From positions 313,360 through 352,419 of IMG/VR virus record IMGVR_UViG_3300032007_000006: a stretch of 39,060 nt of DNA. The stretch is one strand, 5' to 3'. Positions 289 to 38,860 of this stretch are shown here, in pieces. The notes beneath the pieces are model-generated. The model saw only the letters and a list, made by a program, of their open reading frames with translations, did not search any database and was not told the origin of the DNA. Within the stretch, counting starts at the first letter, position 1. Every line of letters begins with the position of its first letter. The DNA is from a virus. Taxonomy: Duplodnaviria; Heunggongvirae; Uroviricota; Caudoviricetes. Position numbers and translations under genes: made by a program.

Positions 289-1371
289 CTAGTGCGCCTT
301 CAGGTTCCAGACGGGATGGAGATGCTCAACGACATCCACAGTCTTTCCATCTATGAGATGCTTAATGGAATCTGCATTCTTGTAGGCCTCGGGAGCCTCG
401 TCCAGCGTATTCTCGCAGACGGAAGAGGTGAAGATGTCCTTCATGGATTCCTTGTAGTCCTCCATGGAGATCAGCTTCTTGGCCTGCCCACGGGACATCT
501 TGCGTCCAGCTCCATGAGGAGCAGAGCAGTTCCACGCTTCATTTCCCTTTCCCATGCATATCAGGGAGCCATCAAGCATGTTCAAGGGAATCAAGACCTT
601 CTGTCCTTCATAGGCGGCTATGGAACCCTTGCGGACTATGGAATGCTCCACGTCAACGTAGTTGTGGATGGTCTCAAACTCTTCCAGAGCCTGCAGTCCG
701 CCAAGCTTCAGAAGCTTGGACATGATGCACTGACGATTGATGGACGCCCACTTTGCCGCCAGATCAACGTCATTCAGGTATCCAGCCAATGCATCTCCTT
801 CCAGCGAGGCCAGATCGGGATGCATTTCAGGATGCATCTGCTTTGCAATCCCCTGCCAGTAGTTTGCAACGGCCATTCCAAAGCCACGAGAGCCAGAATG
901 GACTATGATCCACTGGTCTCCATTGGAAGCCACTTCACAGGAAATGAAATGATTTCCTCCACCCAGAGAGCAGATGGAATGAACTGCATTGTCAATGGCC
1001 TTTTCGCCTATCTCATGGCAGCAATAAAGAGCGTTATAGTCAAAAACAGCATCAACAGGAACTTCATTCTTTCCAAACCCCATGGGAATGTTCTGGACGG
1101 CCAGAGCGTCAAGATGCTTGAAGTCAATGTCGGCCTTTCCAACATTGGCCGCCAGCATGCCGCAGCCAATGTCAACGCCGACAAGATTGGGTATGATGGA
1201 ATCGGAATAGGTTGCAGTGAAGCCAATCACGCATCCCTTGCCGGCATGAACGTCCGGCATGATGGCTATCTTTTCATTCTTGAAGGCTTCAAGACCAGCA
1301 ATGGTCTCAATCTGCTTCAAGGCCTCATCTTCTATCTGATCGGCGTATATCTTGACATTCTGCTTCATCAT
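289..1371 (-). CDS. rtcB: RtcB family RNA ligase (3'-phosphate/5'-OH)
   Basis: Motifs MPDVHAGKG, GVDIGCGM, SLGGGNHF, HSGSRG, HNY, HGAGR, DEAPEAYK; start moved to ATG 1371 after AAGGAGG. Confidence 0.96.
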   Translation of the reverse strand: MMKQNVKIYADQIEDEALKQIETIAGLEAFKNEKIAIMPDVHAGKGCVIGFTATYSDSIIPNLVGVDIGCGMLAANVGKADIDFKHLDALAVQNIPMGFGKNEVPVDAVFDYNALYCCHEIGEKAIDNAVHSICSLGGGNHFISCEVASNGDQWIIVHSGSRGFGMAVANYWQGIAKQMHPEMHPDLASLEGDALAGYLNDVDLAAKWASINRQCIMSKLLKLGGLQALEEFETIHNYVDVEHSIVRKGSIAAYEGQKVLIPLNMLDGSLICMGKGNEAWNCSAPHGAGRKMSRGQAKKLISMEDYKESMKDIFTSSVCENTLDEAPEAYKNADSIKHLIDGKTVDVVEHLHPVWNLKAH

Positions 1372-1437
1372 TGAAGCCTCCTTTGCGTTCACCGAGCGCC
1401 ATCGCTCTTGACAGAAACCTTTCTATCACAGGCCGTC

Positions 1438-4701: not shown

Positions 4702-5166
4702 CTACTTGATATAGATGTGGAAGTCATCCCTGCGGTTGAGGGCCCATGCTTCTTCAGTGTGGGCCGGATCAACTGGATTCTCTTCGCCAAGAGAGACAAT
4801 CTTGATCTTGGAAGGATCAACGCCTTCTTGCACAAGGAAGTTCTCAACGGCCTGAGCACGACGTTCGCCAAGGCCCTTGTTGTAGGTCTTGGAGCCACGC
4901 TCATCTGCATTGCCTTCAACAACAATGGCGATGGACTGCTTCTGCTTCAGAACATGCGCCTTGTGCTTCAGAAGGCACTCATATTCAGGCTTGATCACGG
5001 CACTGTCAAAGTCAAATTTGACAGGTTCTGCAAGGGCACCAATTTCAGAGGCCTTGAGATACTCCTCCTCAGGCACGACAGCGGCGGCCTTCTTGCCGCA
5101 GCCAGCCATGGCCATGCAGGCGATCATCAGAGCAGAGAGAATGAAAAGAGAATAGAAACGTTTCAT
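4702..5166 (-). CDS. Pal/OmpA-C family peptidoglycan-associated lipoprotein
   Basis: Signal peptide with lipobox MAG-C; VKFDFDSA, EGNADERGS, YNKGLGERRA, SLGEENP, NRR motifs. Confidence 0.92.
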   Translation of the reverse strand: MKRFYSLFILSALMIACMAMAGCGKKAAAVVPEEEYLKASEIGALAEPVKFDFDSAVIKPEYECLLKHKAHVLKQKQSIAIVVEGNADERGSKTYNKGLGERRAQAVENFLVQEGVDPSKIKIVSLGEENPVDPAHTEEAWALNRRDDFHIYIK

Positions 5167-5213
5167 GAAACACACTCCTATTAGCCCTAGTTGGGCTGTT
5201 TTTTGACGAAAGT

Positions 5214-13191: not shown

Positions 13192-13267
13192 TAAATAAAA
13201 ACGGCTTTGAAAGCAATTGCAGTTGCCTTCAAAGCCTTAACACCAAATCATAGTAGAGGTATGAATG
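13192..13267 (+). promoter_or_regulatory. TAAATA plus two-hairpin leader, copy 1
   Basis: Same layout at 16386-16460 and 37561-37636. Confidence 0.75.
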
Positions 13268-14611
13268 ATGTCTGAAGATACTTATGAAGACAAATTGTCT
13301 GCTGTTGACGCTGCAGAAAGTCGGGAAGCAAGTGAAGAGAAGGAAATGTTTCCTGGATTTCAAGGGTTTCTCTTCACGCCACAGGAATTGGAACGCAATG
13401 CATCGCGAGGATTGATGAAATGCCAATGCATTCAATGTGGCAGAATATTTTTCATTCCAAAAAATCAGATACAGGCAAGAATAAAAGCCCGTCGAACAAT
13501 ATGCTGCTGTTCTGCAGCATGCACAGCACAATATAAAAAAGAACGCAAAAAGTCTTCAAAAAAGGAATACTGCTGCGCTACTTGTGGAAAACATGTTTCA
13601 TCTAATGAATACTATGGTTCTGGCAGATTTTGCTGTCAAAAATGTTCCAATGCGTATAGTTCAAAGTTTGGAAACACTACAGAAAAAAGAAAGCAGAAGT
13701 CAAACAAGTTATTAGAGCATGGAAAGAAAAAGGTAGTTAAGCCTTGCCACAAATGTGGAAAACCAATTGAATGTTCAGAATATGCCAATAATGCACTATG
13801 TGCAGAATGTCGAAAGAAAAAATATAAGAGCCAAGTTAATAGAAATGAAAATGTTAAACAGCAAACTAAACTGCAAAAACTTAATGAAGAAAGCATACTA
13901 TATCAACAAGTTTTAAAACTATATCATTTGTACAACTTTAAAGAAATGAACGAAGTCTTGAAAATAGATACTAGACTTTTAAGAAGTGTTATAAGAAAAT
14001 ATAATGTTCAACAAAATCCAGCATTGCTTCCTGTACAGCAGTTTGGTAGAATAAAATACACAAAACTAATATTAGATATTCAAGACCGTTCTGTCACCTA
14101 TCATGATTTCATTAGAGCAAAACTTATTTTAGAGCATCATTATCATGTTGAAATGATGTCTCCGGAAGAAATAAAGAAAATGTATAATATTGAATATAGC
14201 TGTTTTGATATGTGTCTTAAAGGTGTATTCGGAATAACATTAAGAAACTTGTCAGAAAGTAGTAGAAATTATCATCAAAAGATTGGAACTTACGACAATA
14301 AGACAGAAAAGGAACTCTATTACATGCAATGCGCTTTTCGGTTTCCTCGAAGTGAGTATAGTCGTATTCCTGGATTTGAACTTGTAAACCAATATGGCTG
14401 GTACAAGCCCGCAAAAAATAGATGGTTTGGTGCTACTAGAGATCATATGATCTCTAGAAACTATGGATGGACGCATAAGATTGATCCAGAGATAATACGC
14501 CATCCAGCCAATTGTCAAATCATGCTCTCAACAGACAACTCTTCAAAGGGAGAGAAATGCACTATCACTGTTGAAGAATTAATGGAACGAATAAAGCATT
14601 GGGAAGATTAA
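13268..14611 (+). CDS. putative free-standing HNH-type homing endonuclease with N-terminal Zn-binding repeats (paralog 1)
   Basis: CxxCG...FCxxxC repeats; C-terminal RDHMIS...HPANCQ...DNSSK; AT-rich and opposite strand. Confidence 0.75.
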   Translation: MSEDTYEDKLSAVDAAESREASEEKEMFPGFQGFLFTPQELERNASRGLMKCQCIQCGRIFFIPKNQIQARIKARRTICCCSAACTAQYKKERKKSSKKEYCCATCGKHVSSNEYYGSGRFCCQKCSNAYSSKFGNTTEKRKQKSNKLLEHGKKKVVKPCHKCGKPIECSEYANNALCAECRKKKYKSQVNRNENVKQQTKLQKLNEESILYQQVLKLYHLYNFKEMNEVLKIDTRLLRSVIRKYNVQQNPALLPVQQFGRIKYTKLILDIQDRSVTYHDFIRAKLILEHHYHVEMMSPEEIKKMYNIEYSCFDMCLKGVFGITLRNLSESSRNYHQKIGTYDNKTEKELYYMQCAFRFPRSEYSRIPGFELVNQYGWYKPAKNRWFGATRDHMISRNYGWTHKIDPEIIRHPANCQIMLSTDNSSKGEKCTITVEELMERIKHWED

Positions 14612-16460: not shown

Positions 16461-17801
16461 ATGTCTAAGACTACTTATGATGGCATTATGCCATCCATTG
16501 ATGATTTCTGTGATTCAGAACCAAGAGAAATGTTTCCTGGATTTCCAGACTTTCTTTTCACCAAGGACGATCTTGATTCCGTTCGTGTACGAGATTTGCT
16601 TGAATGCAGATGCTCTCACTGTGGAAAAACATTCAAGCGATGCAAGGGAGACATTCTGAAAAAGCACTACAGAGTGAACAAGCCTTTAATCTTCTGCAGC
16701 CAGAAATGCTATAATGAACATACAATACTTCTAACTAAAAACAGAAACCATCACGACTACACCTGCAAAACCTGCGGCAGAGAAGTCAAGAAAGATGATT
16801 GGTATGCCTCTGGAATGTTCTGTTCTGAGCAATGTTCCAAAAAATATTCATCAACATTTGCAAACAGCATCGAATCAAGAAAAAAGAAGTCTCAAACAAT
16901 AAAAGAAACTTGTCTTAAAAAGAAAAATCAAATCATAGTTGAACAAAGAAAACGTTATAACGAACAGGCCTCTCAGATCCAATCTCTTCAATCTAAATGG
17001 AATCTTTCAGACATAAGGAAAATACTACACATTAATCACAAAACATTTGAATGCATAGTTAAACGCTTTAATATAGCAGAACATGACCGATATGTTAGCT
17101 TCAGACAATATAAAGTCATTGAACGCTGTCGTATTGCATTAAACAAGCCATTTGAAGATGGAAGCATCACTATTGATGATCTAAAGACTGTACAAAATGA
17201 ATGTCATCGACTAATGTTTGAAGATGACTGGTCTGCCGATGAAGTTTGCAGAAACTATCTGCAAATGGAGAAGCCCAATCCAAAGTTTCTCGAACTGTCT
17301 CTGGGAATAGAACTAAGAAGCCTCAGCATGGCTAGACAGTCTATTCTAAGAAGGAACGGCTACTATGACAACAGAGACGCTGAAGAAGCCTATAGGGCTC
17401 AATGCGAATTCAGGCTGTCATCCAAACTGTATCCATACATTTTTGGATTTGAACTTGTCAAGCTGCATGGCTGGTGTCATCCGATTAAAAATCCCTATGG
17501 AGTCTCTAAGGACCATATGGTGTCTGTCCATTATGGATTCACTCACAACATTGATCCCTATCTCATTTCCCACCCAGCCAACTGCATGTTCATGCTTCAG
17601 TCGGAAAATGCAAGCAAGTGTGAAAACTGCTCAATGACTGTACAGGAACTCATTGAACGAGTGGAATGGTTCAATGAAACCATATTATACAAGGAATTCA
17701 ACCTTGACTTGCTTAGACAGATTAAAATCCGATACAAGCCTTCAAGAAATAGATTCTCTATTCCAGAGATGAATCACTTCGCAGCATTGTCTCTAGTCTA
17801 G
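16461..17801 (+). CDS. putative HNH-type homing endonuclease (paralog 2)
   Basis: EMFPGF shared with paralog 1; Zn repeats; KDHMVS...IDPYLISHPANC...ENASK. Confidence 0.75.
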   Translation: MSKTTYDGIMPSIDDFCDSEPREMFPGFPDFLFTKDDLDSVRVRDLLECRCSHCGKTFKRCKGDILKKHYRVNKPLIFCSQKCYNEHTILLTKNRNHHDYTCKTCGREVKKDDWYASGMFCSEQCSKKYSSTFANSIESRKKKSQTIKETCLKKKNQIIVEQRKRYNEQASQIQSLQSKWNLSDIRKILHINHKTFECIVKRFNIAEHDRYVSFRQYKVIERCRIALNKPFEDGSITIDDLKTVQNECHRLMFEDDWSADEVCRNYLQMEKPNPKFLELSLGIELRSLSMARQSILRRNGYYDNRDAEEAYRAQCEFRLSSKLYPYIFGFELVKLHGWCHPIKNPYGVSKDHMVSVHYGFTHNIDPYLISHPANCMFMLQSENASKCENCSMTVQELIERVEWFNETILYKEFNLDLLRQIKIRYKPSRNRFSIPEMNHFAALSLV

Positions 17802-17817
17802 AGCATTGGAAATCTTC

Positions 17818-17891
17818 TGGAGGCGCGTAATGGAGTCTAACCATTCTCCAAGCATTTGCAGTGCTTTGGCTGAACGCTTGCCTAACGCGCC
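17818..17891 (-). tRNA. tRNA-Cys(GCA)
   Basis: Loop CT-GCA-AA, U73, CCA. Confidence 0.88.
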
Positions 17892-17901
17892 ATGTTGAAT
17901 A

Positions 17902-17977
17902 TGGCCCACGGGAATGGAGTCGCACCACTGACGCTTGGCTCTTCAGGCCAACGCTCTACTGCCTGAGCTACCCGTGG
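17902..17977 (-). tRNA. tRNA-Phe(GAA)
   Basis: Loop CT-GAA-GA, CCA. Confidence 0.88.
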
Positions 17978-17985
17978 AATATTTC

Positions 17986-18063
17986 TGGGGCGAATGGAGA
18001 GCCTTGAACTCTCGGCCTTCTGAGCCACAATCAGATGCTCTGCACTTCTGAGCTACATCCGCC
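17986..18063 (-). tRNA. tRNA-His(GTG)
   Basis: Loop TT-GTG-GC, G-1:C73, CCA. Confidence 0.9.
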
Positions 18064-18071
18064 ATAAATCC

Positions 18072-18199
18072 AAGACGCATTTGCCATTTGCATGTGGAGA
18101 TATCAATCATCTCCAATGCCATGTTCGCGTGGCCGCCACGCATGGAAGCTGGCCTTCTTTCCATTCGCCTCTGGCTGTATTGGTTGCTGAATGCGTCTT
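18072..18199 (-). ncRNA. CWGCAA-stem small RNA candidate A
   Basis: AAGACGCAT-TCAGCAAC...ATGCGTCTT. Confidence 0.6.
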
Positions 18200-18208
18200 A
18201 GGAATGCT

Positions 18209-18297
18209 ACAAGGCTCACTGAGCGAAGGAAAGGATTTAGAATCCAGTCTTCTTTCGAGTTCAGGTCGAATCCATTGAGATTGCTGTACGGAGCCTT
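18209..18297 (-). ncRNA. CWGCAA-stem small RNA candidate B
   Basis: AAGGCTC-CGT-ACAGCAAT...GAGCCTTGT. Confidence 0.6.
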
Positions 18298-18314
18298 ATA
18301 AAGCGAAAAATGAA

Positions 18315-18455
18315 ACAAGGCCTGTTTTTCCATCATTTGCATTGCAATGCCGTTTGCCTCTGAGGCAGGCCAGTCCAGATGGAACGGATGCCACATAGAG
18401 CCTTCTAGGGAAGAAGACAAGCCTATCAATGTATTAGTATTGCAGTACAGGCCTT
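18315..18455 (-). ncRNA. CWGCAA-stem small RNA candidate C
   Basis: AAGGCCTGT-ACTGCAAT...ACAGGCCTTGT. Confidence 0.6.
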
Positions 18456-18472
18456 AAAAATGTCATTGAATA

Positions 18473-18549
18473 TGGTAGGCCTCAAGGGATTCGAACCCTC
18501 ACTGAATGGCGTCTGAGACCATCCCCTCTGCCAGTTGGGGTAGAGGCCT
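18473..18549 (-). tRNA. tRNA-Leu(CAG), short variable arm
   Basis: Loop CT-CAG-AC, TTCGAAT, CCA. Confidence 0.85.
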
Positions 18550-18560
18550 ATATGAAATGT

Positions 18561-18764
18561 CTAAAAGATGTATGGACCCTTGAACTGGACTCCATCATCT
18601 GCAATGCAGACTCCGTTGTCCGTTCTAAATCCAGAAAATCCACTCTTGGATGCGGCGCACCAGACGCCAGAGACGTTGTAGAGCCATATCAGCTCTTCGG
18701 TGCCATCTGCATTTCTTTTGAGCCAATATCCTTCCTTGGGAAGGAACTGAGATGTCCAGTTCAT
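18561..18764 (-). CDS. small hypothetical protein
   Basis: Start MNWTS after GAGGAG. Confidence 0.6.
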   Translation of the reverse strand: MNWTSQFLPKEGYWLKRNADGTEELIWLYNVSGVWCAASKSGFSGFRTDNGVCIADDGVQFKGPYIF

Positions 18765-18786
18765 TTGCGTTCTCCTCAACAGGTCC

Positions 18787-18887
18787 GAGACGCTTTTGGC
18801 TCATTGGAACTGCTTCCCGTTTGCGCTCTAGGCGCAGGACGAAGCCATCCGCCCTCACCACAGGGTATGCATTGCAGCAGGCGTCTC
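18787..18887 (-). ncRNA. CWGCAA-stem small RNA candidate D
   Basis: GAGACGC-CT-GCTGCAAT...AAGCGTCTC. Confidence 0.55.
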
Positions 18888-18897
18888 AATGGAAATG

Positions 18898-18971
18898 TGG
18901 TTGCGGGAGCCAGACTTGAACTGACGTGATTGGGGTATGAACCCAAGGAGTGGCCTCTACTCTATCCCGCG
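18898..18971 (-). tRNA. initiator tRNA-fMet(CAT)
   Basis: C1:A72 mismatch, GGG/CCC anticodon stem, CCA. Confidence 0.88.
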
Positions 18972-18981
18972 ATGTGAAGAT

Positions 18982-19045
18982 ACAAGGCGCAGTTTGCTTA
19001 GTATGCAGTCTAAATTGCGATAAGCTGAATTGCTGCATGCGCCTT
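18982..19045 (-). ncRNA. CWGCAA-stem small RNA candidate E
   Basis: AAGGCGCA-T-GCAGCAAT...TGCGCCTTGT. Confidence 0.6.
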
Positions 19046-19056
19046 TCGGAAATCTA

Positions 19057-19130
19057 TGGAGCGGGTAAGGGGAGTTGAACCCCTGCTAAGAGCTTGGAAG
19101 GCTCCTGTGCGACCGTTACACCGTACCCGC
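19057..19130 (-). tRNA. tRNA-Gly(TCC)
   Basis: Loop CT-TCC-AA, U73, CCA. Confidence 0.92.
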
Positions 19131-19137
19131 ATAATGT

Positions 19138-19203
19138 ACAAGGCATAGTTTTGGATTAGATTAATAAAGAGTCTAATTAAGTTTGTGTTGCTGTCTATGC
19201 CTT
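19138..19203 (-). ncRNA. CWGCAA-stem small RNA candidate F
   Basis: AAGGCATAG-ACAGCAAC...CTATGCCTTGT. Confidence 0.6.
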
Positions 19204-19284
19204 AAAATTCGGGGAGTTCATCGACCTCCCGAACGAGCGCCGAATTTCAGCGTCTTCACGGCTTGATCAGTTCCGCTTGACTTC

Positions 19285-19360
19285 TGGTACCAGGCAATGG
19301 AATTGAACCATTCTGTCCAAGTGTATGAGACTTGTGCGTGAACCGCTACGCTAGCCTGGC
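19285..19360 (-). tRNA. tRNA(CAT): elongator Met or Ile2
   Basis: Loop CT-CAT-AC, CCA. Confidence 0.85.
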
Positions 19361-19372
19361 CTAACTGAAATA

Positions 19373-19496
19373 TGCTGAATGAGGTGGGATTTGAACCCAC
19401 GGAACGCCTTCCGTTCAGGATTGCCTAGGATGCTCTGAAAGGCCTGCGCCCTGCGGAAGCTTGTCCGCTGCAATCATCCTGCTCTGCCACTCATCC
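19373..19496 (-). ncRNA. tRNA-Ser-like RNA with large insertion and non-CCA end
   Basis: GGATGAG/CTCATTC acceptor, GTGGG-TTCAAAT-CCCAC T arm, 6-nt loop CAAGCT, ends AGCA. Confidence 0.55.
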
Positions 19497-19506
19497 AGAA
19501 AAATGA

Positions 19507-19575
19507 ACAAGGCTCAATATGGGCATGTTCCAATCATCAGTCGGATTTCCTATAAGGATTTGCTGTGTGAGCCTT
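19507..19575 (-). ncRNA. CWGCAA-stem small RNA candidate G
   Basis: AAGGCTCA-C-ACAGCAAA...TGAGCCTTGT. Confidence 0.6.
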
Positions 19576-19810
19576 TGAAATTTCTGCAGGCTTCCGTGAT
19601 TCAGTCGCCTGCACCCCTCTGCTCCTGTCTGCATATGAACGGACGACGTCCATCAACCATCTCAAGTCCGGCGCCAGTCTCAAGTGGTTCATTCAATGCA
19701 GAGCCTCTAGCACTCGCATTTCTAGAATGCGGAGGGTTGGAGCCATGGCTTATGCAGACAGTGCTTGTCATCCAAAGATGCTTTAGTTCATCTGCCGCAT
19801 GGAAAATCTC

Positions 19811-19898
19811 TGGTGGAGAGGGGTTGATTTGAACAACCGATGCCCGAAGGCGGCGAATTTACAGTCCGCTGACATAGACCAGACTAGCCGACCTCTCC
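19811..19898 (-). tRNA. tRNA-Tyr(GTA)
   Basis: Loop CT-GTA-AA, long variable arm, CCA. Confidence 0.92.
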
Positions 19899-19901
19899 AT
19901 G

Positions 19902-19966
19902 ACAAGACGCATTTTTTGCATAACGGATTATCAATTCCAGTGCAATAGGATTGCAGCATGCGTCTT
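19902..19966 (-). ncRNA. CWGCAA-stem small RNA candidate H
   Basis: AAGACGCAT-GCTGCAAT...ATGCGTCTTGT. Confidence 0.6.
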
Positions 19967-19974
19967 ATTGAAAT

Positions 19975-20630
19975 GTTGGGGAAGAGCCACTTCCCCTCCT
20001 AGACCTGGACCACCTGGCTAAGATGTCCTCTCCGTGTCGGCTTGCGGCTGGCTATTGACGGTACCGACTCCGCTGAAGGTGTCATTCTGGACGGGAGCCA
20101 CTTCAGCCTGGACATTCCCGCTTTGCACCCATAGCTCGATTTCATTCACGTTCAGGTTCCGAGCAGTGCCTGAACCCCAGAGCGCCGTCACGGTCTGGCT
20201 GTTTTCCTGCCATTCCTGTGTACTGGGCAGGAAGAATTGCGGACATGTCTCAAACTCTTTCAGTGAGCCATTGTCCGAAATGGCGGGATTTCTCCGGTAT
20301 CCCTAAACGGGGGAGCAAAAGTTCTAAGACTTCTGCGGCAAAGTCCGCTTTGCCCTGTTCGTCCACTCAAATCAAGACATCATCTAGAATAGCCTTGGCA
20401 GGCAAAAATTGTGGACAGCCTTCAAGGGACTCAAACCCTCCTCTGGACAACAGCCTTTCAGCTACCGTCAAGGCGCACTCTGCAAAGTCTGTCCTATTCA
20501 TCCATTGGCCGCATGCTGAAGAGCGCAGGGTTTCGATCCCGTGAACCTCCTCGGCATTCCGATTCGGCTCCTGCCCAATGTTCAATGAACATCCTCAGGT
20601 CATTCAGCATCTTTCCTTTAGGATGAAAAA
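19975..20630 (-). ncRNA. candidate large structured ncRNA (about 650 nt)
   Basis: No convincing ORF; follows a promoter plus boxA leader; many local hairpins; lies in the tRNA array. Confidence 0.45.
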
Positions 20631-20643
20631 TTTCTTCGGTTCC

Positions 20644-20723
20644 CTATTCGGTTTTCAAGGAGCCGATGGGAACCATTTCCCATCTCTTGAAGGCAGTCTA
20701 GCAGAACTGCCTTCCGCTGTCAA
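20644..20723 (-). promoter_or_regulatory. sigma70 promoter, hairpin and boxA-like leader
   Basis: TTGACA-N17-TAGACT, then hairpin 20665-20684, then GCTCCTTGAAAACCGAATAG. Confidence 0.7.
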
Positions 20724-20823
20724 GTCCTTTGAGGAAGATATTTTAACTTAAAGATTTTTTTCTCTCCCTCTCTGGACAGAATCCACTCTAGCAGAGAAAA
20801 GACATTATGTCAAGTATTTTCTG

Positions 20824-20897
20824 TGGTGGAGCCTAGGAGACTCGAACTCCTGTTAAAACGCTGCCAGCGTCTCTTCCTCCCATTGAAAGAAGGCCCC
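20824..20897 (-). tRNA. tRNA-Ala(GGC)
   Basis: G3:U70, loop CT-GGC-AG, CCA. Confidence 0.88.
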
Positions 20898-20917
20898 ACG
20901 AAAATTTCTTCAATTCC

Positions 20918-20937
20918 CTATCCCATTGTCAAAGAGT
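20918..20937 (-). promoter_or_regulatory. boxA-like leader
   Basis: ACTCTTTGACAATGGGATAG downstream of the promoter at about 20975-21001. Confidence 0.6.
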
Positions 20938-21118
20938 GGCGAGACTTGGCTTCCGCTTCATCTCTTGAGACTACCCTATCAAAGGCTGGCCTCGCTGTCA
21001 AGCAGTTTTTCATGCAGCATTAATGCTTCTTGGTTTGCTTGAAAGTGGCGTCACTACCCTCTTTCCCATTGACAAATGCAGAATAGCACGTTTCGTCCAA
21101 AACGTCAAGAAAAAAATC

Positions 21119-21196
21119 TGGTCGGTGCGGCCTGATTTGAACAGGCGGTATCCTGCTCCCAAAGCAGGTGCGATAACCAAGCTACGCTACGCCCCG
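21119..21196 (-). tRNA. tRNA-Pro(TGG) copy 1
   Basis: Loop TT-TGG-GA, CCA. Confidence 0.92.
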
Positions 21197-21205
21197 ATGA
21201 AATTC

Positions 21206-21279
21206 TGGCAGGGCATGATGGAATTGAACCACCACGTTGACGTTCAGAGCGTCACGGTCTGCCATTAGCCTAATGCCCT
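21206..21279 (-). tRNA. tRNA-Gln(CTG)
   Basis: Loop CT-CTG-AA, G73, CCA. Confidence 0.88.
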
Positions 21280-21288
21280 ATAAGGATA

Positions 21289-21364
21289 TGGTGGAGGCTA
21301 GGAGAGTCGAACTCCTGACCTACTGCGTGCAAAGCAGTCGTTCTCCCATCTGAACTAAGCCCCC
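21289..21364 (-). tRNA. tRNA-Ala(TGC)
   Basis: G3:U70, loop TT-TGC-AC, CCA. Confidence 0.93.
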
Positions 21365-21389
21365 ATAGAAATTTGTCTTCCTTCATTCT

Positions 21390-21409
21390 CTATTCGGTTT
21401 TTAAAGAGC
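21390..21409 (-). promoter_or_regulatory. boxA-like leader
   Basis: GCTCTTTAAAAACCGAATAG. Confidence 0.7.
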
Positions 21410-21553
21410 CGAGCGAGGCTTCCCTCAAACTCACTGAAGGCATCCTATCAAAGAGAGCCTTCCCTGTCAAGCATTTAATGAAAGATTTTTTGAAGATTTT
21501 TCTGGGAGGGAGAAACCCTCCCTCCCGTCAATTCATTCTACTGGTTCAACGGT

Positions 21554-23243: not shown

Positions 23244-23320
23244 GCTCTCCGATGGAACTTGAACCCATGCACTTCCCAGCCTAATTGACTGAATGCTCTA
23301 ACCAACTGAGCTACGGAGAG
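23244..23320 (-). ncRNA. tRNA-like RNA with abnormal anticodon arm and no CCA
   Basis: Perfect CTCTCCG/CGGAGAG acceptor, canonical D arm, TTCAAGT T-loop; loop TCAATTAGG. Confidence 0.6.
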
Positions 23321-29543: not shown

Positions 29544-30518
29544 CTATCCTTCCTTCAGCATCTGGCTGGCAGCAATGTTGAAAAGCTTGAATCCAAGCCC
29601 TCCGATGGACTGAATGGCCTTTCTGTCCTTATTGGAAAACTCTTCATTGGGATGCAGCTTCAGAAAGTCTTCCCAGGCATCATTGAGAAATGGACCTACA
29701 TATGGTCCAAAGTCCTTTGGAGATTCTGGACGTCCTATCTTGGACAGAACGGACCACATCCGCGATTCAGTGCAAAGGCTCTGAAATTCCTTTCTGAACG
29801 CTCTCAAAGCATTGTCCTCCTTGTCGGATGGCTTCAAGGCTATCTTGTCTGCGGCCCTTTCCCTAAACTTCTCATTCTTGGACTTGAAGATGAACTGGAG
29901 ATTCATGTCATGGAGACGCATCTTCCAGGGAAGCTCAAACGGCTCAATGACAATTCCTTCAGCAGTCTCCTTTGGATTCAGCTGCGAAGGCACATTGTTC
30001 GACACCTTGCAGGCTTCCTCAAAGGAATTGTATATGCCAATCATTGGAACAAGCAGATAGCCAAGTCCCCATCCCTTCAGCATTGCGTCCAGTTCAGAGT
30101 AGGACCACAGATGGTATTCGCCTTCATTTATGCTGTATGCTCCGAAGAATGCAAAGGCATATTCAGGACCATACTTGATTCTGTTCATCACCTTGGAGCC
30201 ATAGTATTCGCCATTCAAGGTGATCTGATCACACTTAGGCGTTGCGGAGAGAAAGGCCTTCAGCTTCAGAAGCAATTCAACTATGCGATTCAAATGCTCC
30301 CCAACATTGAAGAAGTTGGTGTCGGGAGTCAGCATACTGTTGCGAGAAGAGACGCGAACGCCCTCACGAGAAACGTTGATTCCAATGTTGGTGCCGTCAA
30401 TCTTCTCGGTGACGACCCAATGGCAGTCAAGCGTCCTTGCGGACTTGACGTCCTCAGTCTTCTTTTCCAGTTCAAGATCAAGATTCTCTATAGAGGCCCA
30501 GCGATGAAACTCCATCAT
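29544..30518 (-). CDS. Rnl2-family ATP-dependent RNA ligase
   Basis: FHRWASIEN, motif I TEKIDGTN, SSR, GEYYG, EGIVI, KSKNEKFRE, SVLSKIG. Confidence 0.88.
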   Translation of the reverse strand: MMEFHRWASIENLDLELEKKTEDVKSARTLDCHWVVTEKIDGTNIGINVSREGVRVSSRNSMLTPDTNFFNVGEHLNRIVELLLKLKAFLSATPKCDQITLNGEYYGSKVMNRIKYGPEYAFAFFGAYSINEGEYHLWSYSELDAMLKGWGLGYLLVPMIGIYNSFEEACKVSNNVPSQLNPKETAEGIVIEPFELPWKMRLHDMNLQFIFKSKNEKFRERAADKIALKPSDKEDNALRAFRKEFQSLCTESRMWSVLSKIGRPESPKDFGPYVGPFLNDAWEDFLKLHPNEEFSNKDRKAIQSIGGLGFKLFNIAASQMLKEG

Positions 30519-30574: not shown

Positions 30575-31786
30575 TCAGCAGAAGGCAAAAACGCCGCTTT
30601 TTTGTTTCGGCTGTTCTGAACTGCACTCAAAAAGGCGTTTGGCAACCTGTCTAATGACTTCCACGTTGACTGCGTTGCCGAATTGACGATAGGCCCTCTG
30701 AGGATTTGCATCTGGAACAAATGGAGAACTGGAATCGACAGGAAAGCATTGAAGCCTGGCCGCTTCCCTCACTGTAAGACGCCTTCTATATCTTCCTATG
30801 ATAGGAACTTGAACCATTGCAACAAGAGTTTGAAAGCAGTCTGGAGACTTTACTCTGACTCCAGATGGACGCATCTGAATAACGCCTTCCCATATGGTTG
30901 ATATTTTCGTCCCACACTGCCACTCAAACTTCCTATGCGTCGGACGATATTTCTTCAATCTATCATGCTTTTTCAGCCATGAATCAATGAAAGGCTTATT
31001 GGTCCTATACAACACTGAATTTCGCGAAACTACAGAGGCCTTCCATTCAGGAAGACCATCCAGAACAGGACTTGCAGTCAATGAATCAGTCCATACAGGA
31101 AATCCAATGGTTTTCAAATTAATTCCCTGATAGAATTCTTCCCAGACTGAAAGAAGTCCTTCTTCATACTCGGATATTCCGCATTCAGTTTCATTCTCAT
31201 CCAGAATGGAGTAGATTGAATTGTCTTCCTTCTTCAGAAGGCTGCTGAATGAAATGTCAATGGGAAAAATGACGTTTTCTGGATCAAGCATCCCAGGAAT
31301 GATTACTCTTTCCCTGATTTGAGGAATGCCGAATTGATGTGGACTAAGAATGAGTGGAGAAGACGTGGTTCTGTATCCAAGTTCCCTTATACTTTCCTGT
31401 ATGATTCTCCAGGTGTTTCCGTTGTCATGCGTCACAATGTTCTTCACGTTTTCTAGAATGAACCATTTTGGCTTCTTGGCCTTCAGAATGCGGACGATGT
31501 CAAAGAACAGCGTTCCTCTTGTTCTGTCCTGCAGTCCAAGCCTTGCTCCAGCCTTGCTGAAGGCCTGGCAGGGAAAGCCTCCACAGAGAACGTCAAAGTC
31601 TGGAATTGAATTTTCGTTAATGCTTCTTACGTTGATGCTGGAATCAACGCCATAGTTGGCCTTGTAGACTGCAACTGCCGCCTTGTCTATCTCCGAAGCC
31701 AAAATGCACTGTCCACCTAGAGACGCCATGGCCTGATGAAATCCACCAATGCCTGCAAAAAGGTCTATAAACTTGAATTCTTTCAA
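30575..31786 (-). CDS. DNA (cytosine-5)-methyltransferase
   Basis: DLFAGIGG, GGFPCQAFS, ENV, PQIRER, RLTVREAARLQ, QFGNAV. Confidence 0.95.
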   Translation of the reverse strand: MKEFKFIDLFAGIGGFHQAMASLGGQCILASEIDKAAVAVYKANYGVDSSINVRSINENSIPDFDVLCGGFPCQAFSKAGARLGLQDRTRGTLFFDIVRILKAKKPKWFILENVKNIVTHDNGNTWRIIQESIRELGYRTTSSPLILSPHQFGIPQIRERVIIPGMLDPENVIFPIDISFSSLLKKEDNSIYSILDENETECGISEYEEGLLSVWEEFYQGINLKTIGFPVWTDSLTASPVLDGLPEWKASVVSRNSVLYRTNKPFIDSWLKKHDRLKKYRPTHRKFEWQCGTKISTIWEGVIQMRPSGVRVKSPDCFQTLVAMVQVPIIGRYRRRLTVREAARLQCFPVDSSSPFVPDANPQRAYRQFGNAVNVEVIRQVAKRLFECSSEQPKQKSGVFAFC

Positions 31787-31789
31787 AAT

Positions 31790-32512
31790 CTATTCCTCAT
31801 CACATGACGGAAAATTCCATTTCTTTATGCAAAAGGAATCTATATTCCTGGACTTGATCATCACCTTTCTCTTTCTAGGCCTTCCATTGCTGTTTCGTCC
31901 CTGCTTGAACGTATCTAAATTTTTGCACGTTTCTGCGTTAATGTCAAGCAGTTCTGCTCCAGTCAGCGTTCCGTCATGCTTCATTCTACGGCCGTAGCTG
32001 TTTCTGTTGCTTTTTCCAAGCATGTCATTCCAGAAATGCGTAACCTCATAGTTGTGTTCCGAGTCTTTTGAAAATTTGAAATTGAATACCAGATAGTAGA
32101 TATGGCCTTCTGGATTTTCCTGGAAATACTTTTCTATAGTGTCCATGTCATTTCCAAGAATGGCCGAAGATGTCGTGCTGTGAGTCTTTATGTCCCCAAA
32201 GAAATTCAGTTTCGGAAACTTCAAGTCCAGATCCATTCCATTCTTTGTTCTGTCCTGATAGAAGGCAACGTCTTCCGAAAGATTATGTCTTTGAATGGCC
32301 CTTTCAATGGACAGCTCTGCATATGCACCAGCCCATTCACCCCATCCACTTTTGCTGTAGCCAGCATTTTTCATGTCTGTATAGCATTCAATTCCATTTA
32401 AATGCTTTGACATTGATGAAACAAGAAGGTCGCATATTTCAACTACGCTTTTAGTTTCTCCAGAATTCACATTCTTCTCCATGATTTTCTGCCATATTGG
32501 CCTTGTCTTCAA
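31790..32512 (-). CDS. putative type II restriction endonuclease (PD-(D/E)XK-like)
   Basis: E...DLD...GDIK motif; 3 nt upstream of the MTase; true start may be MEKN. Confidence 0.55.
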   Translation of the reverse strand: MKTRPIWQKIMEKNVNSGETKSVVEICDLLVSSMSKHLNGIECYTDMKNAGYSKSGWGEWAGAYAELSIERAIQRHNLSEDVAFYQDRTKNGMDLDLKFPKLNFFGDIKTHSTTSSAILGNDMDTIEKYFQENPEGHIYYLVFNFKFSKDSEHNYEVTHFWNDMLGKSNRNSYGRRMKHDGTLTGAELLDINAETCKNLDTFKQGRNSNGRPRKRKVMIKSRNIDSFCIKKWNFPSCDEE

Positions 32513-32575: not shown

Positions 32576-32968
32576 TGGTGGAGACGGCGGGAGTTGAACC
32601 CGCGTCCGCGAAGCATATTCCGCTTCGTCTACAGGCTTAGTGCAGATACTCATTTTGTCTCCACATTCAGGGCCATCCCTCTGCACAGGTCTCCCAGAAT
32701 GCTGACGTTCAGTCTTTATAAGCTTCGGACTGCCATTGGCTCTGAAGTTCCGCAGAGTCCTATCCCTCTATGTGAAGCCTTGTCCATCCCAAGGGAGAGA
32801 ATGAAAAGACCTGCCTTCTTCCTAGGGAAGGCGCCTGGCGCCACTATGCAGCGCAGGCATATGCGTAGTCGTTGCCGATTACTATTTCTGCCGCTTGATA
32901 AGGGAGCCAGCGGCGCTCCCGCCTGCAAAAGCCGAAACCACTCTCCACGTCGAAACCATTTCGTCCCC
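32576..32968 (-). ncRNA. ssrA: tmRNA
   Basis: 5' GGGGACGAAATGGTTTCGAC, 3' GGTTCAACTCCCGCCGTCTCCACCA with G3:U70; tag frame GNDYAYACAA-stop at 32844-32876. Confidence 0.95.
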
Positions 32969-37636: not shown

Positions 37637-38860
37637 ATGTCTGACAATACTTATAGTTTGGAAACAATCATAGTTTCAAACCCAACTTTTTGCTTTTCCA
37701 TCCAAGAATATCAAAAAGCAAAAGTTAGAGATATGCTTCCTTGCCACTGCATAATATGCAATAAAGATTTTTACACCGAAAAACGACGTATTAATAAGTT
37801 TCTTAACGGTAAAATAAAAAATCTTTATTGTTCTAAACCATGTGCCTTTGAAGCGGCCAAAAAACCTGTAGAAAAGCATGAACCATACTATTGCGAAAAA
37901 TGTGGCAAATTTGTAGACAGTGAACAATATTATGGCAATGGTCGATTTTGCAGTGAACTATGTTCAAGGTCATATGCTTCATCGTTTGTTTCATTAGAAG
38001 ACAAACGAAAAAACTTTATACCAGCAAAAGAAAAGCGTAAAGAAATACAGATACAAAACGCTAAAAATACTCTTAACAAAGAATACAATGATTTAATTCA
38101 TAAATTAGAAAAATGGAATATTTCAGATCTAATAAAATTAAATTTATTCACAAAAGCAAATTATGATAAAATTAAAAAAGAATATGATATATCACAATAC
38201 ACATCAAAATATATTTCAGGTAGAGATGCAACAATCAACTTTTGTAGAAATGTCATTCAAAAACCAATTACAGATGGAAGCATAACAAAATCAGATTTTC
38301 AGAAAATTCAAAATATACTACAAACATTAATAGATGAAAATAAATTTACAGCTTATGAAGTATGTCAAAAATATAACTATACCAATGCTAAACATTCAGC
38401 ATCAGCATTTTTAAAAAATGTTTTCAAATTAAAATTACTTCCTAATGGTGAAGCATTAAAAGCAAGTTATTATAGAAAAAGTGGAAAAAATAAAACAAAA
38501 CACGAACGCTATTACCAAGATACTAGATTTAATATTCCATATAAAATATGGAAATATCTTCCAGGTTGGGATTTATATCTAAAATATGGAACATATAATC
38601 CAAAAACAAATCCAGATGGCGTTGATAAAGATCACATAATTTCTCGTTCATATGGAGAAAAACATAATATAGATCCATATCTTATAAAACATCCAGCTAA
38701 TTGTCAATTTTTACAACATAACATTAATCGTAAAAAATTTACAGATTGCTCATTAACAATAGATGAACTTATAGAACGTGTTCAACTTTTTAATGAGACA
38801 ATTTTAGATCCAGATTTTAATCTGGATACTTTTCCAATAAAAACATTTCATTCATTATAG
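37637..38860 (+). CDS. putative HNH-type homing endonuclease (paralog 3)
   Basis: Zn repeats; DKDHIISR...IDPYLIKHPANCQ...INRKK; very AT-rich. Confidence 0.75.
   Translation: MSDNTYSLETIIVSNPTFCFSIQEYQKAKVRDMLPCHCIICNKDFYTEKRRINKFLNGKIKNLYCSKPCAFEAAKKPVEKHEPYYCEKCGKFVDSEQYYGNGRFCSELCSRSYASSFVSLEDKRKNFIPAKEKRKEIQIQNAKNTLNKEYNDLIHKLEKWNISDLIKLNLFTKANYDKIKKEYDISQYTSKYISGRDATINFCRNVIQKPITDGSITKSDFQKIQNILQTLIDENKFTAYEVCQKYNYTNAKHSASAFLKNVFKLKLLPNGEALKASYYRKSGKNKTKHERYYQDTRFNIPYKIWKYLPGWDLYLKYGTYNPKTNPDGVDKDHIISRSYGEKHNIDPYLIKHPANCQFLQHNINRKKFTDCSLTIDELIERVQLFNETILDPDFNLDTFPIKTFHSL

Follow-up and report, generated by a model that had tools for sequence, protein, structure and literature searches.

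Stem-CWGCAA elements within a phage tRNA array: a likely uncatalogued kind of Y RNA that travels with a predicted Ro60-fold protein

What occupies the gene-sized gaps inside the transfer RNA (tRNA) array of a large tailed phage? We addressed this question for a window of 39,060 nucleotides (nt), positions 313,360 to 352,419 of virus record IMGVR_UViG_3300032007_000006 (Caudoviricetes), which is the terminal 39 kb of this 352,419-nt, 99%-complete record. The window contains 37 tRNA genes and one transfer-messenger RNA (tmRNA), and near-identical DNA is found in sequencing runs labelled bovine gut. An earlier note on this DNA had pointed to eight minus-strand elements lying between tRNA genes, each with a terminal stem and a CWGCAA motif. 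All eight (E1 to E8, window positions 18070-19966) are present at the places claimed, no more than 2 nt off, and the observation is real. The elements are likely to be an uncatalogued kind of Y RNA, because their stem-motif design travels with a predicted Ro60-fold protein, of the family DUF2828/DUF7788, across phages and bacteria.

Several features indicate that the eight elements share a common design. First, the two strands of the genome together contain 14 occurrences of the pattern RAGRC-N4..7-CWGCAA, and eight of these fall on a single strand of this 1.9-kb stretch. Each element is closed by a terminal stem of 6-9 base pairs (bp) that is free of G-U, starts with AG[AG] and is extended by an outer pair. 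A strict stem-plus-motif descriptor returns 21 genome-wide matches, comprising these eight, without G-U, and 13 others that are scattered, versus 3-11 matches for each of four control motifs placed in the same descriptor. Looser whole-genome patterns give counts near background, and a relaxed scan of the tRNA regions yields no convincing ninth copy. Second, stem sequences covary, as had been proposed: all 32 pairs at stem positions 3-6 are Watson-Crick, whereas exchanging 5' and 3' arms between copies in every way (40,320 permutations) leaves 20 on average (p=3e-4). Since the inserts cannot be aligned, descriptor, permutation and swap tests took the place of a covariance model. With the copies folded one by one, the stem pair probability is mostly >0.9, with the innermost pairs at 0.71-0.9. 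Third, the elements do occupy gene-like slots among the interleaved genes for tRNA-Tyr, Met, Gly, Met, Leu, His, Phe and Cys (17818..19898, minus strand; ARAGORN/Rfam), separated from neighbouring tRNAs or elements by spacers of mostly 3-17 nt that resemble tRNA-tRNA spacers. Fourth, no Rfam family matches the eight at its gathering score or at E<=10, in line with the novelty originally suggested, and neither ARAGORN nor RF00005 recognizes a tRNA, with its cloverleaf and CCA end, in any of them.

One structural detail is not supported by folding. The CWGCAA motif had been described as unpaired; folding opens it fully only in E3, and elsewhere it pairs with inner partners that differ from copy to copy. 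Among 294 dereplicated members of the wider family, a conserved second helix pairing with the motif is likewise unsupported (87/294 vs 76.6 in shuffled sequences). The motif has also drifted in this genome, with CUGCAA in three of the eight copies versus four of the 294 family members.

Which protein might bind such a handle? Of the partner types that had been put forward, the DUF2828/vWA candidate stands whereas TROVE (PF05731) has 0 matches in the 352-kb genome. The DUF2828/DUF7788 gene, which encodes 521 amino acids (aa) and has PF11443 and PF25043 matches, lies outside the window at about 195.6-197.2 kb of the record (G000:C1; L001:742-2307, minus strand). An AlphaFold model built from a 116-sequence alignment has a predicted local distance difference test (pLDDT) score of 92.5. 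Among the Foldseek matches listed at E<1e-3, all are Ro60 proteins, the best being phage phiRo60 (E 5e-8). The model aligns with Xenopus Ro (VIA) at Z 21.4 over 420 residues with a root-mean-square deviation of 4.3, and other vWA proteins reach Z <= 11. MIDAS-type residues D298/S300/S302/T376/D406 are conserved in the alignment. The protein is thus predicted to adopt the Ro60 fold, in which helical repeats are closed by a vWA domain with a MIDAS.

Sequence similarity to known Ro60 proteins is low. Identity to Ro60 structures is 10-17%, and sequence searches against solved structures found nothing significant (phiRo60, E 0.87). A single-protein scan of viral contigs found nothing, relatives being recovered only with an alignment, and an Atlas search returned DUF2828 clusters only. 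Homologues are present in 711 of 50,697 phage records, including Felixounavirus, Listeria, Campylobacter, Vibrio and mycobacteriophages, and many gut bacteria also hold DUF2828 matches. Some mycobacteriophage records already label homologues 'Ro-like RNA binding protein', and so the Ro60-fold link is not new. The part still lacking a definition is the stem-CWGCAA RNA, of which no description was found in the literature searched (most subscription papers lay outside its scope).

Does the element travel with this protein? This check had been proposed in the earlier note, and we ran it starting from the protein, from the element and from the tRNA array; in each case the answer is that it does. 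For the protein-first set, we took the best 80 viral of 519 and the best 80 prokaryotic of 500 relatives, all from partial scans. Of the viral DUF2828 loci 58/80, and of the prokaryotic ones 63/80, have an element on the gene's strand no more than 1.5 kb away, compared with 4/80 and 2/80, respectively, on the opposite strand and 0-6/80 for four control motifs (two further control motifs that overlap the true motif were excluded). Most of the misses contain CAGCAA copies with another outer stem, and when C[AT]CGAA replaces the motif under an unchanged stem, this control stays at background level near DUF2828. For the element-first set, 44 of 120 pattern loci were searched for DUF2828. The gene is found in 13 of 14 tRNA-array records with stems (three near-duplicate pairs are included, and the miss is a 14%-complete fragment), versus one of 27 chance-match records and none of three palindromic look-alikes. 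The look-alike (L020:2459-2546, L079:4002-4089 and L088) has the handle on both strands, lies in records that lack tRNAs and DUF2828 alike, and is probably a different element.

The array-first set comprised 80 loci collected with a generic tRNA pattern, of which 38 (37 records) have at least four tRNAs; the element scan covered 20-kb stretches with a descriptor that misses stems running into extra G-U pairs. A full DUF2828 gene is present in four of the 37 records; each of these has elements, which in one case were recovered only under relaxed criteria. Among seven near-complete records, none has the gene and none has an element near its tRNAs, and one further record has a weak partial DUF2828 match without elements. 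A looser pattern scan, mostly noise, gave 47 of 80 loci without a stem, and DUF2828 in 13 of the 33 loci with a stem versus 0 of the 47 without. Finally, seven TROVE loci from 401 genomes showed two isolated background-type matches, no cluster and no YrlA match, and this control is weak because YrlA itself was not matched there.

Members of the wider family reveal what the inserts can be. A T arm is present in 63 of the 294 members (shuffles 0.06), and a lone anticodon arm in 61 of the 231 members without a T arm (shuffles 4.3, a 14-fold enrichment). Of these lone arms, 43 have a CU..AA loop frame, and the anticodons UUU, GUU and UGA are favoured. Several relatives hold a permuted tRNA with T before D, as in YrlA. 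The stem was also tested in a way that is not circular: of 271 candidates chosen by motif only, 88% can pair their own 5' strand with a 6-7 bp arm, versus 31% for swapped arms. When 13 related loci were searched with Rfam, only tRNA, tmRNA and lysine riboswitch scored, and some of the tRNA-family matches fall inside family elements.

The interiors of the eight elements had been called unrelated, and their inserts do differ; they are not all featureless, however, in that hairpins of E1-E4 and E7 resemble intact or degenerate anticodon arms. E1 (19902..19966, minus strand like all the others, 65 nt) ends 3 nt before tRNA-Tyr and joins the stem AGACGCAU and motif CUGCAA to a degenerate anticodon-arm-like hairpin whose 8-nt loop contains GAU. 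E2 (19507..19575, 69 nt, motif CAGCAA) has the only strict anticodon arm of the eight, with a 5-bp stem and the Ile-type loop CU-GAU-GA. E3 (19138..19203, 66 nt) has a 5-bp hairpin with an 11-nt loop, and E4 (18982..19045, 64 nt) a degenerate Cys-arm-like hairpin whose 8-nt loop contains GCA. In E7 (18209..18297, 89 nt) there are two hairpins, one with the 7-nt loop UU-CUA-AA on a 3-bp stem. The other three, E5 (18785..18887, ~103 nt, with a GAG...CUC stem variant), E6 (18315..18455, 141 nt) and E8 (18070..18199, 130 nt, strongly folded with z -4.1 and 7 nt before tRNA-His), have larger, unclassified multi-hairpin inserts. Under a relaxed anticodon-arm definition adopted after the fact, 5/8 elements qualify versus 2.3 expected (p=0.04). 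Several inserts of this strain seem degenerate and may be idle.

The insert of E6 also drew our attention for another reason. Its positions 18371-18391 (minus strand) match in sense (18/18 and 20/21 nt) the core of a phage coding repeat of 27 residues (S-I-P-S-G-L-F-D), which is present in ~100 copies in large genes at 261-288 kb, two of them with weak PKD matches. This match was a post hoc finding, and two out of 300 sets of shuffled inserts equalled its score; it may represent capture, mimicry or chance. Once codon bias and duplication are allowed for, the coding repeat shows no clear constraint at the nucleotide level, and we found no convincing antisense target in the phage's own genome for any insert.

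Contigs from other strains show where the elements vary. Among the differences listed, none falls in the motif, stem changes keep their pairs, and the insert varies. The E6 stem has a U-A pair changed to U-G in other strains (among the differences listed, 40 of 244). In E4, a hairpin A-U pair becomes G-U, and a G before CAGCAA becomes A, towards the family consensus. E3 has a double change of a hairpin U-A pair to C-G in two runs with no listed handle change, and its loop, of 11 nt in this genome, has 13 nt in two runs and only 7 nt (CU-GAU-AC) in a single RNA-library contig; this last loop was reconstructed from listed differences, which include 7 of the contig's 10 substitutions. One near-identical contig (L526, 99.8%, not independent) spans the array, and other close relatives end before it. 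In runs X7/X8 (17891-19902), relatives' contigs join E1 or E8 to other tRNAs by skipping 1861 and 177 nt; these alternative joints, each from a single low-depth contig, suggest modular rearrangement of the array.

How might the RNAs be made and used? Four sigma-70-type promoter matches with extended -10 lie upstream of the array (20695..21470, minus strand; consensus scan only), and a consensus scan of the array strand from 21600 to 17700 found no terminator-like site. With four promoter-like sites upstream and an uninterrupted strand, one precursor is therefore likely. RNase P and spacer cleavage both have roles in tRNA processing. We find it quite likely that the elements would be transcribed from the upstream promoters within one precursor and released by RNase P cutting at the next tRNA and by cuts in AU-rich spacers. 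The promoter cassettes themselves are repeated (TTGACA, 17 nt, TG, TAGnnT), with a fifth seen by eye near 21000, and two of them share ~125 nt at 74% identity.

Once released, each RNA would very probably be bound at its stem and CWGCAA handle by the predicted DUF2828 ring. In this genome binding would occur in trans, given that 135 kb separate the gene from the elements and that no element copy adjoins it. The ring may then stabilize the RNA and present its insert, as bait or tether, to tRNA-cutting defence nucleases, to repair ligases such as RtcB and Rnl2, or to PNPase. That the element and the DUF2828 protein form a ribonucleoprotein (RNP) is a prediction in which we have high confidence, and the Ro60-fold model, the co-occurrence and the tRNA-part inserts in relatives support the earlier idea that a constant protein handle carries variable cargo. 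We favour a counter-defence or repair role because anticodon-arm inserts are found in the family, genes for RtcB (289..1392) and an Rnl2-type RNA ligase (29544..30518) lie on the minus strand of the window, and the homologue gp130 of phage Bas63 is reported to counter the Ppl system; this predicted role is plausible, its chances falling a little short of even. As a whole, the reading that these are processed small RNAs whose handle is bound by a DUF2828 ring and whose inserts aid the phage against attack on translation is, in our judgement, probably correct.

Three published systems help to place this proposal. The bacterial and phage YrlA/YrlB Y RNAs of Rsr/Ro60 (RF02553; Chen et al. 2014, PMC4201824) similarly have a 5'/3' stem, a short motif in the 5' strand, a variable domain and several copies near a Ro60-fold gene. 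Relatives of the eight furthermore carry a permuted tRNA domain with T arm, closed acceptor and D arm, and RtcB is present in this genome. In contrast, the YrlA motif GNCGAAN0-1G is absent and all eight have CWGCAA at that place, which bears out the mismatch with the Ro60 site noted earlier. The partner also differs, being a DUF2828/DUF7788 protein with no PF05731 match, and a tRNA-like domain with T and D arms is found in 0/8 elements here. RF02553 has eight sub-threshold matches in the genome, on or beside tRNA genes and none on the eight. The elements would thus work like Y RNAs, but they are not YrlA, because the GNCGAA motif is absent. They do share two features with Y RNAs in the broad sense, an end-pairing stem next to a conserved motif and a predicted Ro60-fold protein in the genome that is linked by neighbourhood in relatives. 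Bacillus G, CcrColossus and Bxz1 appear in the phage table of PMC4201824, from which Felix, Listeria, Faith1 and LeBron are absent.

The second system is that of phiRo60-Yrl1/Yrl2 of Thermus phage phiLo (PMC12135203; PDB 9KOP, 9L5Y), in which a phage Ro60 ring and small RNAs are reported to have a proposed counter-defence function, and phage Ro60 binds Y-like RNAs and slows PNPase. It differs in its TROVE-type protein, its CGAA motif and its two RNAs that adjoin the gene. The third is phage Bas63, whose gp130 is a full-length homologue of the DUF2828 protein (33% identity over 499 columns) with four elements downstream. The part of the preprint available (bioRxiv 10.1101/2024.10.10.617714) reports gp130 as a counter to Ppl; the protein is Ro60-like and its gene adjoins a tRNA array. 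The preprint's authors raise the possibility that Y RNAs are among the annotated tRNAs; the stem-CAGCAA elements lie instead between annotated tRNAs, and that part of the preprint does not define them.

Several observations weigh against our proposal. When the elements are folded with 100-nt flanks the stem is kept in six of eight and lost in E5 and E6. In this strain a T or D arm is found in none of the eight, and the strict anticodon arm in only one (p=0.07). The DUF2828 gene lies ~135 kb from the elements, and the published Ppl result, in the portion of the preprint cited above, concerns the gp130 protein and not RNAs. RNA-library contigs cover all copies but E2, yet they carry no strand, ends or level; the two RNA runs represent one sample and offer no silent control stretch. 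Fragment L296 of the array-first set has a single element-like match without a DUF2828 gene. Moreover, the co-occurrence counts are not independent, because the 160 loci were the best-scoring ones and near-duplicates are included.

The main rival accepts the same RNP and assigns it a housekeeping task. The RNAs would gate the ring, or tether it, in the quality control or decay of RNA, as in a RYPER-like assembly that includes PNPase of the host, and the inserts would be no more than tRNA remnants undergoing drift, with no role as bait. Y RNAs are reported to tether Ro60 to PNPase (PMC4201824; PMC12135203), the inserts here are degenerate or unclassifiable and variable between strains, and the element-DUF2828 pair is common in bacterial genomes too. 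Against it stand the 14-fold enrichment in the family of lone anticodon arms with CU..AA loops, which favour UUU, GUU and UGA, and the report that gp130 counters a defence system. We regard a housekeeping, PNPase-linked role as unlikely, although it is the strongest of the alternatives.

If the elements acted in cis, as operators, DUF2828 would regulate its own mRNA or genes nearby through a leader site made of stem and motif. This would fit the prokaryotic loci, where 103 of 154 copies lie upstream of the DUF2828 gene and end no farther than 500 nt from it. It fits poorly with the many copies that lie downstream, with inserts made of tRNA parts, and with this genome, where all eight lie between tRNAs and far from a gene that has its own promoter-like sequence and no copy; we consider such an operator very improbable. 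The tight interleaving with tRNAs could also mean that the elements work without a protein, as signals for processing or stabilizing the tRNA precursor, but none of the seven near-complete array records lacking DUF2828 has an element near its tRNAs and many bacterial copies have no tRNA in the locus, which makes this explanation highly improbable. Lastly, DNA-level debris, in the form of recombination sites or miniature inverted-repeat elements that came to lie among the tRNAs, might be imagined from the short terminal inverted repeats, the rearranged arrays of relatives and the three loci with a palindromic look-alike on both strands and no DUF2828, but the strict strand bias, the 17 to 4 excess of G-T over A-C types among imperfect stems, and stems that differ between copies yet remain paired around unrelated interiors make this very improbable.

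Other features of the window are given here as context. On the minus strand are the tmRNA (32576-32968), an OmpA/Pal-type lipoprotein gene (4702-5175) and a C5 methylase gene beside an unnamed 240-aa open reading frame (ORF) (30575-32512). A tRNA-like gene at 19376-19496 (minus strand), missed by ARAGORN and scored at 35.5 bits by Rfam, has a 6-nt loop with GCU and an extra arm of ~50 nt, lacks CCA and is possibly a degenerate or expanded tRNA-Ser(GCU). Three further tRNA-like folds seen by eye, without an ARAGORN or Rfam call (~20520-20612, 20412-20493 and 19204-19284, minus strand), have terminal or acceptor-like stems and T-arm-like hairpins. At 23244-23320 (minus strand), ARAGORN calls a tRNA Asn(ATT) with the odd loop CA-AUU-AG, and a normal Asn(GUU) is also present. 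Directly upstream of E1 is an unannotated GC-rich stretch (19970-20250, minus strand) whose contig depth, a poor measure, is among the highest in both RNA runs; its folding is no better than that of shuffles, and it has no match in phage records. Three paralogous ORFs of 407-448 aa (13265-14611, 16461-17801 and 37637-38860, plus strand) run against the tRNA strand. They are 29-35% identical and cysteine-rich, with one weak zinc-finger match and, by eye, a homing-endonuclease-type look. Finally, tRNA-Ser(GGA) and Thr(CGT) are present at both record ends (1-190 and 350746-350917), which suggests a circular genome with terminal overlap.

A further comparison reaches beyond phages and bacteria. 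Dictyostelid Class I RNAs (RF01414; Kjellin et al. 2021, PMC7919456) are 42-65 nt long, with a short covarying stem joining their ends, an AAG start, a CUGU end and a variable interior, and their adjacent 11-nt motif has fixed C6, C9, A10 and A11. The spacing of CWGCAA equals that of C6/C9/A10/A11, and the elements here mostly start with AAG and end with CUUGU (the motif letters being part of our search pattern). Class I RNAs differ in that their motif T3 is not fixed in the stem-CWGCAA family (104/294). Their described binder is the RRM protein Rnp1A, and no Class I RNAs were found outside Dictyostelia (PMC7919456). Two RF01414 matches in this genome (E 3.5 and 9.2) lie elsewhere and none is on the eight. 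We can nevertheless imagine, as a speculation that is on balance doubtful, that DUF2828 rings and stem-CAGCAA RNAs constitute a second widespread Ro-Y system. Such a system would serve as a display rack for copies of defence targets (anticodon arms, T arms and, in E6, a 21-nt piece of the phage's own mRNA), with loops hypervariable between strains as an arms-race signature and the dictyostelid Class I RNAs as a eukaryotic branch.

What would these RNAs mean for the biology of phages and their hosts? If the proposal is true, it supplies the missing RNA partner for a large protein family of unknown function, DUF2828, and offers a concrete hypothesis for the dictyostelid Class I RNAs; were the display-rack version also true, both would gain a function. 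The elements would account for stretches left without annotation in the tRNA arrays of many phages, and for some matches to tRNA families inside elements. To this picture the present genome adds eight copies far from the gene, which argues against a role in cis, a drifted motif, and, at the level of strains, evidence for a constant handle joined to a fast-changing insert. Since Bas63 is a laboratory phage with the protein, four elements and a published defence phenotype, the idea would be directly testable there.

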